A DNA stretch of 64,000 nt from an uncultured Candidatus Saccharibacteria bacterium (GTDB taxonomy: Bacteria; Patescibacteriota; Minisyncoccia; Minisyncoccales; CAZKCU01), in the NCBI GenBank assembly GCA_964431915.1, contig CAYSLI010000001.1, forward strand, positions 191,824 through 255,823, written 5' to 3'. The notes under the pieces were generated by a model. It was not told the DNA's origin and made no database searches. It was given only the letters and a program-made list of their open reading frames with translations. Positions 30,032 to 31,111 of this stretch are shown here, in pieces; the first letter of the stretch is position 1; each line of letters starts with the position of its first letter. Position numbers and translations under genes: made by a program.

Positions 30032-31111
30032 ATGAAAAGCTATAAAAATTTGTTTGACAAAATTTGTTCTTTCCAAAATTTACATTTAGCTTATTTGAAA
30101 GCCAGAAAATGTAAAAGATACAGAGATGAGATTCTGGGATTCAGTTTCAATTTAGAAGAGAATTTACTGAAATTACGGGAAGAATTACTAAGTCAAACTT
30201 ATCAACACGGCGGTTATCGAGAATTTATCGTCTGCGATGCAAAAAAGCGCCATATAAAAGCAGCCCCTTTTAGAGACAGAGTAATCCATCACGCTTTGTG
30301 CAATTTTATTGAACCGGTTTTTGACAAAGGATTTATTTTTGACAATTACGCCTGTCGGGAAGAAAAAGGGACACACAGAGCCATAAGAAGGTTGGAGCAG
30401 CTTATAAAATCAGCTAATACCGTTTTAAGAGAGAGAGAGAGAGAGAGAGAGAGAGAGAGAGAGAGTAAATTCGCTTGGCGAATTTACTGCTTAAAATGTG
30501 ATATTTCAAAATATTTTGATAGTATAAACCACAAGATTCTTTTAGACATTATAAAGAGGAAAATCACCGACAGGGAAGTCATTTGGCTGATTGAAGAAAT
30601 TCTAAATTCAAGCGAAGAAAAGTCAAACACGGGGATTCCCATCGGTAATTTAACCAGCCAGCTCTTTGCCAATGTTTACCTGAACGAATTAGACCAGTTT
30701 GTAAAGCACAAATTAAGAGTAAAATATTACATTCGTTATATGGATGATTTCCTAATTTTAGATTTTGACAAGAGAGAATTGCATGAGATTAAAAGAGAAA
30801 TAGGCGAATTTCTGGGAGATAGATTGAAATTAGAATTACATCCAAAGAAAGCCAATGTTTTTCCTACTGAGAAAGGAATTGATTTTCTCGGCTATCAAAT
30901 TTTCGAAAACTATAAATTCTTAAGAAAAAGCACCGTTAAAAGATTTATAAGGAGAACGAAAACTTATCAGAGAAAATTAAAAATGGACTTAATAAGCCAG
31001 GAAAAATTTAATCAATCCCTCCAATCTTGGTTAGTCTATGCCCGCTTTGGAAATTCCTATCAATTAAGAAAAAACCTATCAAGAAAATTAAAGGTCAATT
31101 TAATAAAATAA
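30032..31111 (+). CDS. DGR reverse transcriptase
   Basis: RT motifs 1-7. Motif 4 is IGNLTSQLFANVYL, the DGR-specific (I/L)GxxxSQ form replacing QGxxxSP. Motif 5 is YMDD (IRYMDDFLIL). Also FLGYQI. 359 aa. Confidence 0.9.
   Translation: MKSYKNLFDKICSFQNLHLAYLKARKCKRYRDEILGFSFNLEENLLKLREELLSQTYQHGGYREFIVCDAKKRHIKAAPFRDRVIHHALCNFIEPVFDKGFIFDNYACREEKGTHRAIRRLEQLIKSANTVLRERERERERERESKFAWRIYCLKCDISKYFDSINHKILLDIIKRKITDREVIWLIEEILNSSEEKSNTGIPIGNLTSQLFANVYLNELDQFVKHKLRVKYYIRYMDDFLILDFDKRELHEIKREIGEFLGDRLKLELHPKKANVFPTEKGIDFLGYQIFENYKFLRKSTVKRFIRRTKTYQRKLKMDLISQEKFNQSLQSWLVYARFGNSYQLRKNLSRKLKVNLIK
30428..30465 (+). repeat. (AG)19 dinucleotide microsatellite inside the RT ORF, encoding (RE)6
   Basis: agagag... 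spans 38 nt in frame (LRERERERERERES), between RT motifs 2 and 3. Confidence 0.9.

Follow-up and report, generated by a model that had tools for sequence, protein, structure and literature searches.

An AG dinucleotide tract as a candidate frame switch in the reverse transcriptase gene of a diversity-generating retroelement

How the activity of a diversity-generating retroelement (DGR) is controlled, and how a favourable variant of its variable repeat (VR) is protected from being overwritten, are open questions. The 64-kb stretch analysed here (the window; contig CAYSLI010000001.1, positions 191,824 to 255,823, of an uncultured Candidatus Saccharibacteria bacterium) holds a DGR whose reverse transcriptase (RT) gene carries a perfect (AG)19 microsatellite inside its coding sequence. 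An initial annotation of the locus had proposed that slippage on this tract switches diversification on and off. We find that the same strain occurs in nature with tracts of different length that are predicted to keep or break the reading frame, and that related RTs carry repeats of variable length at the same place. The most probable reading, to which we assign a probability of roughly 0.75, is that the hypermutable tract moves the RT in and out of frame by slippage, so that populations would mix cells that diversify their VR with cells in which it is locked.

The AG tract and its natural length alleles

The RT open reading frame (ORF; 30032..31111, + strand) encodes 359 aa in the allele of the window and matches RVT_1 with E=4.7e-21. 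The tract occupies 30428..30465 on the + strand, about 40% into the ORF, between the GTH of RT motif 2 (residues 113-115, 30368..30376, + strand) and motif 3, YCLKCDISKYF (residues 152-162, 30485..30517, + strand), and upstream of the catalytic YMDD motif (residues 236-239, 30737..30748, + strand). Tandem Repeats Finder (TRF) describes it as a period of 2 with 19.0 copies and 100% matches over 38 nt. Sequence, TRF and alignment thus agree with the initial annotation on the tract and its position, and translation of 30032..31111 bears out that it encodes (RE)6 in frame, the codons across it being TTA-(AGA GAG)x6-AGT, or L-(RE)6-S. A repeat scan found no other dinucleotide array in the window. 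An AG 12-mer, of which 0.01 occurrences are expected by chance, has 14 overlapping matches in the window, all of them within the tract. In the neighbouring genes AGA accounts for 62% of the arginine codons and GAG for 27% of the glutamate codons. Since GAG is thus the minor glutamate codon and a series of six AGA and six GAG has a P of about 2e-5 under independent codon choice, the repeat is an entity at the DNA level and not the outcome of codon-by-codon choice. A search of the whole window with Rfam at gathering thresholds returned one tRNA only and no known RNA element over the tract.

The consequences of a change in length were computed for 12-25 AG units. Tracts of 3n+1 units, such as the 19 of the window, yield a full-length RT (359 aa with 19 units), which we refer to as ON. 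With 3n units (15, 18, 21 and so on) the frame runs into a latent TAA stop directly 3' of the tract (30466..30468, + strand), giving 144 aa with 18 units. With 3n+2 units (17, 20, 23 and so on) translation continues into the tail VNSLGEFTA and ends at a second latent TAA (30492..30494, + strand), giving 152 aa with 17 units. According to the computed translations, both out-of-frame (OFF) products lack motifs 3-7, motif 3 being the first motif of the catalytic core to be lost. The expectation that gain or loss of a single unit truncates the RT before YMDD is therefore borne out by the computed products, loss of one unit giving the 144-aa protein and gain of one sharing the VNSLGEFTA frame with loss of two, and a change of three units keeps the frame as anticipated. 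We also considered a split but functional RT in the strain of the window and rejected it, as there is no in-frame ATG, GTG or TTG between the tract and the methionine of YMDD. An OFF allele therefore cannot supply motifs 3-4 via a second polypeptide.

Natural alleles were sought in public assemblies. The exact 359-aa RT was absent from the contig index, and contigs of the same strain were reached via the neighbouring Avd and a 371-aa protein. One of them, the JGI contig Ga0307421_1000150 (45 kb, from an independent metagenome), is identical to positions 23485-45931 of the window over 22,447 bp except in the VR and in the tract. The two VRs differ by 20 substitutions, 19 of which fall on positions that are adenines in the template repeat (TR), and the TRs are identical; this change of the VR against a constant TR is indirect evidence of ongoing mutagenic retrohoming. 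The tract of the JGI contig is (AG)18 with identical flanks, and its frame meets the TAA. Accordingly, the JGI gene caller annotates two genes in place of the RT, one of 144 aa, which ends at this stop, and one of 123 aa, an orphan ORF that begins at the methionine of YMDD. Predicted products of nine other tract lengths were then looked up by exact sequence. The 152-aa product of 17 units was found as protein P0121 on a 61.9-kb JGI contig, an allele that rests on the exact protein match only. The 144-aa product, which JGI calls, had no match among the clustered proteins, and we treat this absence as an indexing gap. Contigs from Logan break within the tract or ahead of it and give no information on its length. 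One of them encodes, like the JGI contig, a bAvd protein identical to that of the window and starts inside the tract at 15 units; as these 30 nt equal k-1 for k=31, this start is a graph break. Thus, tract length is not invariant across assemblies, and by these sequences one strain is sampled with 19 (predicted ON), 18 (predicted OFF) and 17 units (predicted OFF, in the other frame).

Repeats in the same loop of related reverse transcriptases

Whether the tract is peculiar to this strain was addressed by fetching the DNA of 160 related loci and examining the segment between motifs 2 and 3 in 158 RT loci. The closest full-length homologues reach 75% identity to the RT of the window and are annotated as Patescibacteria or Paceibacteria where named. 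At least two RE or ER dipeptides are present in the loop of 20 of the 112 parsed full-length relatives, and GGG in 7 more. The initial assertion that a simple repeat inside an RT is rare in itself hence does not hold for this clade. Its view that (RE)n is unexpected in DGR RTs is right for the Bordetella RT (bRT) and for more distant DGR RTs, where it is absent, but not for the clade relatives, among which it is common. All RE cases consist of pure AG/GA repeats, with 18 units in locus L087, 17 in L011 and L015, 14 in L030, 13 in L020, 12 in L008, 11 in L085, 6 in L001 and 4 in L018. The GGG cases examined are all encoded by homopolymer runs (L126, G12; L003, G11; L153, G10), and an A9 variant is also found among the loops of relatives. 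The relatives therefore do not share a conserved (RE)n as ordinary sequence; they carry pure repeats of differing length. In RTs below about 55% identity the loops are short (15-24 nt) and without repeats. Such tracts are far denser in the loop than in the rest of these loci: dinucleotide repeats of at least 5 units occur 8 times in 5.9 kb of loop versus 4 times in 529 kb elsewhere (about 180-fold), and G/C runs of at least 8 occur 3 times in the loop versus 13 times elsewhere (about 20-fold). Prokaryotic coding regions, by comparison, generally avoid mutable repeats in mid-protein (PMC3315296).

In-frame alleles within one flank class differ by multiples of three units, as in L011 (17 units) and L085 (11 units), which are 96% identical, and in L001 (6 units) and L008 (12 units). 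The RT regions of L011 and L015 are only 81% identical, and both contain an uninterrupted (GA)17. A DNA-seeded and roughly unbiased set of loci includes 12 with a repeat, and 10 of these keep the frame (P=5e-4 versus one third), which implies that RT function is under selection while the tract is retained.

Three loci showed features of their own. In the Paceibacterota RT of L087 (1526-1792) the loop measures 261 nt and is in frame, an insertion far larger than the repeat alone, and the (GA)18 is embedded in GC-rich, seemingly partly self-complementary sequence (GGCGGGCGGGCAC ... CCTGCCCGC). In L008 (about 788-815, corresponding to protein P0126) the (GA)12 is preceded by TGA where relatives have AGA, so that a stop stands at the first tract codon with the overall length in frame; on this contig of 1.26 kb it would be either a nonsense OFF allele or an error. 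Another Paceibacterota RT, in L112, has a G12 run (2373-2384) in its C-terminal (thumb) part, just before which the tblastn match ends; in this other lineage the run may be an additional site prone to frameshifts.

The repeat could also be of use to the protein itself. The DGR motif-4 signature [I/L]GxxxSQ is present as PIGNLTSQ, and both PIGNLTSQ and YMDD (alignment columns Y236, M237, D238 and D239) are invariant among 41 aligned relatives. The best sequence match in the PDB is bRT (8ub7_A, 2.3e-55). An AlphaFold2 (AF2) model of the RT has a mean pLDDT of 75 and finds its top fold matches in the cryo-EM structures of bRT (8ubd/8ub7, TM 0.68-0.75). In this model the RE residues lie inside a continuous helix (residues 113-142) that begins at the GTH of motif 2 and is followed by a loop to the motif-3 strand. 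Alignment to other DGR RTs supports the expected insertion, bRT having a short AELRRTRAT and about 20 fewer residues at this place; the bRT cryo-EM preprint, searched for the equivalent loop (residues about 125-132), makes no statement on it. With moderate confidence, an in-frame change in length would just lengthen or shorten a protruding helix, which fits the observed tolerance. Selection could then act on the (RE)n as a charged helix that extends the RT fingers, perhaps in contact with the DGR RNA or Avd, and tunes activity by its length, and the DNA repeat would be a by-product. The predicted helix and the existence of in-frame alleles from (RE)2 to (RE)6 and above would suit such a role. 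We nevertheless consider it improbable, as sister lineages carry a poly-G-coded GGG(G) or no insertion at the same place, the bRT loop is short, and the RE tracts use only AGA and GAG despite the minor status of the latter. Additionally, the AF2 model is only moderately confident at the RE tract (pLDDT 59-74).

Alleles out of frame are found among the relatives as well. Both RT halves are in one frame in 156 of the 158 loci, and the two exceptions, L133 and L153, both shift in this loop. L153, the single-cell genome of Ca. Paceibacter normanii, has a G10 run, and G9 would restore its frame; L133 combines a frameshift with a tract that is degenerate and only G4. The first 132 residues of the RT, used as a protein query, retrieved 120 short proteins of 123-227 aa. 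Among these, 35 run past (RE)n or GGG and read the motif 3 region in a wrong frame (one frame in 22 of them, the other in 13), 34 contain the repeat followed by a different tail, which in P0121 and P0196, the examples looked at, is a short out-of-frame one, and 31 end at the repeat. Only 4 of the 120 are plain in-frame truncations at contig ends. Some short RT fragments in the protein collection are artefacts, as shown by P0144: this ENA protein was excluded as an OFF allele because it is a contig-end artefact with the tail PVSYTHLTLPTICSV, which resembles a translated Illumina Nextera adapter and which we take to be an adapter chimera. Several of the fragments lie on long contigs. One of these gives an OFF allele in an otherwise preserved cassette: L177, from a 57-kb metagenome-assembled genome (MAG) contig at NCBI, has (GA)14, an RT split into 156 and 198 aa, and intact Avd and TR/VR.

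ON and OFF alleles recur within lineages. P0125 (OFF, (AG)8) matches P0006 (ON, CG+(AG)5) at 100% identity over 136 aa. P0239 and P0241, also at 100% identity, stand in the two different OFF frames, and three lengths of the G tract occur among P0134, P0135 and P0136, which again share 100% identity. The allele series of one subgroup comprises 6 (ON), 7 (OFF), 8 (OFF), 9 (ON) and 11 (OFF) units. In the lineage of P0149, the OFF allele CG+(AG)7 is identical in all 10 contigs read, which come from 10 samples and three pipelines.

These series also bear on the question of whether the tract or its length differences could be produced by stutter in the polymerase chain reaction (PCR), by low-complexity read errors or by collapse of de Bruijn graphs. 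Dinucleotide repeats of such length do stutter in PCR, and the break of the Logan contig inside the tract indicates that assemblers struggle there. Yet three independent assemblies of the same strain, the window and those of JGI and Logan, contain the tract with the same flanking sequence, so the tract itself did not arise as an artefact of assembly. OFF alleles are also found for tracts as short as 7-8 units, for which stutter is negligible, and ON unit numbers are equal modulo 3 within a flank class (L011/L085, L001/L008), which is unexpected for random error. Since CG+(AG)7 is identical in 10 contigs from three pipelines, sequencing noise is ruled out as a general explanation, and an origin of the pattern as a whole in sequencing or assembly is very improbable.

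A frame switch and its alternatives

The natural alleles of 19, 18 and 17 units and the ON/OFF pairs of relatives support the initial proposal of a slipped-strand switch on DGR activity, which they widen from a single gene to an entire clade of RTs. In the proposed mechanism, slipped-strand mispairing would change the length of the tract. With 3n+1 units the 359-aa RT would be made, the (RE)n merely extending the helix that follows motif 2. Alleles of 3n or 3n+2 units would end translation 0 or 9 codons past the tract and leave a stump of 144 or 152 aa. A stump devoid of motifs 3-7 would make no mutagenised cDNA, and the VR would be frozen. The population would consequently contain ON cells, which diversify, alongside OFF cells, which are locked. 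With a perfect non-triplet repeat, alleles of both kinds and a conserved position at which repeats are enriched, the locus passes as a candidate phase-variable locus of the simple sequence repeat (SSR) type. The allele series suggest slippage at a high rate as the mutational mechanism and switching that is reversible within a lineage, and RT activity is probably lost in the OFF alleles. More weakly, the data suggest a reason for which the arrangement persists: it would gate a mutagenic system that is costly, allowing bet-hedging and the locking of good VR variants.

Several observations weigh against this interpretation. The assemblies are consensus sequences and the tract has 38 nt, so that PCR stutter or the choice of the assembler could contribute to the differences between 19, 18 and 17 units. 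The loop takes large non-repeat insertions (261 nt in L087; also P0076 and P0037), which fits a permissive site. Most sampled repeat-bearing loci are ON, and OFF variants could therefore be transient deleterious mutants. Finally, the P0149 lineage is OFF in all 10 contigs read, yet the VRs that could be compared, those of its loci L167, L170, L171 and L172, differ. In L167, L170 and L171, which were aligned to the TR, the differences lie at TR adenines and the TRs are identical. A strictly binary switch is hence not the sole reading of these data.

An alternative to a switch is that the microsatellite is a tolerated mutational hotspot with no regulatory role. It would have arisen in a non-essential gene, in a surface loop that accepts indels, and would go on expanding and contracting. 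Alleles in frame would be neutral, and OFF alleles would be mildly deleterious or initial steps of DGR decay. The loop indeed accepts very different lengths, even large unrelated insertions, and 10 of 12 repeat-bearing loci in frame is what would be expected with OFF alleles selected against. The CG+(AG)7 OFF allele looks fixed in all 10 contigs read, and L133, with its G4 tract and frameshift, resembles decay. What a mere hotspot leaves unexplained is that the tracts are confined to this loop and do not occur in other indel-tolerant RT loops of the alignment, that two unrelated repeat types (AG and G) occupy one site, and that long tracts are free of interruptions in RTs that share only 81% identity. 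Repeats of this kind are, moreover, normally removed from coding regions (PMC3315296). Apart from the frameshift, OFF cassettes are intact, and their VRs still vary on the OFF background. Within lineages, ON and OFF alleles are found repeatedly, the change of length going either way. We therefore regard the hotspot as unlikely, although it is the alternative to be taken most seriously.

For VR variation on an OFF consensus there are three possible sources. Under the switch model, frequent excursions to ON would return to OFF; another RT could act in trans; or expression could be leaky through ribosomal or transcriptional slippage on the tract. In L167 the VR lies at 1859-1976 and the CG+(AG)7 tract at 3083-3096, and the VR differs among the L167-L172 contigs that share this OFF allele. 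In the L167-L172 loci the RT is followed by a second Avd-like gene, of 167 aa, and L167 contains a variable stretch at 4591-4795.

The last of the three sources is akin to a more general alternative, in which the tract is an expression attenuator that acts by recoding: the ribosome, through tRNA re-pairing after a 2-nt slip on the repeated AGA/GAG codons, or RNA polymerase would slip on it. Each allele would then give some full-length RT, and the length and phase of the tract would set the dose of RT instead of an absolute on/off state. VR diversification on a uniformly OFF consensus would be accounted for in this way, and the sequence suggests that slippage is feasible, as all three frames of (AG)n code for RE and a 2-nt slip would restore perfect codon-anticodon pairing. 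Homopolymer runs, such as the A9 and G10-12 of relatives, are classic substrates of RNA polymerase slippage (reviewed in PMC5009743). Programmed frameshift sites, however, are kept out of frame, and no conserved out-of-frame arrangement is seen here: 156 of 158 loci have both RT halves in one frame, and the OFF alleles are spread over the two wrong frames. Attenuation by recoding thus appears to be a rather remote alternative.

A broader form of the switch reading holds that the (AG)n or poly-G tract has been kept or regained by selection in the RT loop of Patescibacteria across the clade, as a two-tier system of evolvability in ultra-small uncultured prokaryotes that would keep splitting populations into cells that diversify and cells that lock the VR of their surface protein. 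We advance this extension tentatively, at somewhat less than even odds. A possibly comparable case was noticed in an archaeal (Aenigmarchaeota/DPANN-type) DGR, in which the 3' terminus of the Avd-like ORF is a poly-G run (...GGWYKKFAV-GGGG) that precedes the RT by about 360 nt. Its length is G14 in L056 (1126-1139), G12 in L059 (1128-1139) and L061 (1128-1139) and G11 in L123 (1129-1139), and these assemblies are 98.6-99.8% identical where compared. The archaeal run adds, independently of the RT tract, another DGR component with a repeat of polymorphic length. Under the two-tier reading, the VR differences on an OFF consensus and the archaeal poly-G would mean that reversible switching is frequent in nature and that control of DGR components by repeats arose more than once. 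Other repeats were seen further from the RT: (CT)22 in an Omnitrophota MAG (L127, 775-818), about 700 nt upstream of the DGR RT, and G9-G11 runs in the common context 'caatcGGGGGGGGGcga' in archaeal loci (L120, 809-819; L026, 771-779; L032, 787-795), about 700 nt upstream of the RT.

The DGR cassette and known switching systems

The cassette that the tract would control lies on the + strand upstream of and including the RT. The target gene (21408..29270) encodes a repeat-rich, surface-protein-like protein of 2620 aa, whose last 422 aa match PF03781 (FGE-sulfatase) at 2.3e-13; this C-terminal FGE-sulfatase/C-type-lectin (CLec) fold carries the VR, which is located at the 3' end of the gene (29150..29277). 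The gene for the accessory protein bAvd follows (29329..29667, 112 aa, PF22296 at 5.7e-17), and then the TR (29709..29836), which comprises 128 nt with 29 adenines. TR and VR are 87% identical. TR adenines account for 14 of the 17 differences and the other three lie beyond the shared 3' end, so that inside the repeat proper every mismatch falls on a TR adenine. By all features tested, namely RT, TR/VR, Avd and a CLec/FGE target, the locus is a complete DGR. A second VR, sought with the conserved 3' end of the TR, was not found in the window. The target gene additionally contains two blocks of tandem repeats of about 162 nt (23583-24363 and 26090-26831, 81-84% matches) that code for DLDDDGDYDLL-type units, and the large protein is two-fold internally duplicated. 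Unrelated to the DGR, a 68-nt tandem repeat at 13539-13682 (2.1 copies, 97% identity) contains the internal inverted repeat GGATCTT...AAGATCC.

DGRs are especially frequent in bacteria of the candidate phyla radiation (CPR). If the proposed switch is true, a frameshift in the RT gene would be a simple genetic answer for the large CPR group of DGRs to the questions of how activity is controlled and how a favourable VR is spared. Split RT genes, which annotation pipelines discard as pseudogenes, would then be informative, and synthetic tools for DGR mutagenesis could borrow the tract as a stochastic on/off gate. Surveys that rely on VR polymorphism distinguish no more than 'active' and 'inactive' DGRs (PMC8144416); with a switch of this kind, such 'inactivity' would often be a reversible phase and not decay.

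The literature searched brought up general reviews only, the DGR papers examined for repeats or phase variation do not mention them, and no publication that connects simple repeats or phase variation with DGR RTs came to light. We likewise found no published description of repeat-based frame control of a DGR RT, while the mechanism proposed here would be of the known contingency-locus kind. As in the SSR contingency loci of Haemophilus, Neisseria, Campylobacter and Helicobacter, a perfect non-triplet intragenic repeat would set the ON or OFF frame. Length alleles of contingency loci are likewise described as segregating among otherwise near-identical genomes (PMC3315296; PMC11868660). Unlike in those loci, the gated gene would be a retroelement RT and not a surface or modification gene, the repeat lies about 40% into the ORF instead of near its 5' end, and the host is an uncultured, environmental, Patescibacteria-like organism. 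The closest likeness is that to the phasevarions, in which a stochastic switch sits on the very enzyme that creates heterogeneity, a Type III or Type I restriction-modification methyltransferase. Dinucleotide and other repeats are reported at conserved positions in many homologues of these enzymes (PMC5909438, PMC7383803). Whereas the phasevarion enzymes alter methylation and gene expression, the DGR RT would rewrite a protein-coding variable region.

The DGR of the Bordetella phage BPP-1 (PDB 8ub7 series) resembles the element of the window in the sequence and fold of its RT (2.3e-55; TM 0.7), in Avd, in the adenine-specific relation of TR and VR, and in the CLec fold of the target. Its bRT differs in the short, non-repetitive AELRRTRAT, where the RT of the window has about 20 residues more, including (RE)6, and we found no repeat-based control described for bRT. 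Reversible mutator switches that depend on tandem-repeat copy number exist in mismatch-repair genes, for example through 6-bp repeats in Salmonella mutL. There, too, a slippage-prone repeat toggles the state of mutagenesis, a form of second-order evolvability to which the DGR tract may be compared. The mutL switch acts genome-wide through an in-frame change in copy number; the DGR tract would act through a frameshift, and the mutagenesis that it gates would be confined to a single VR.

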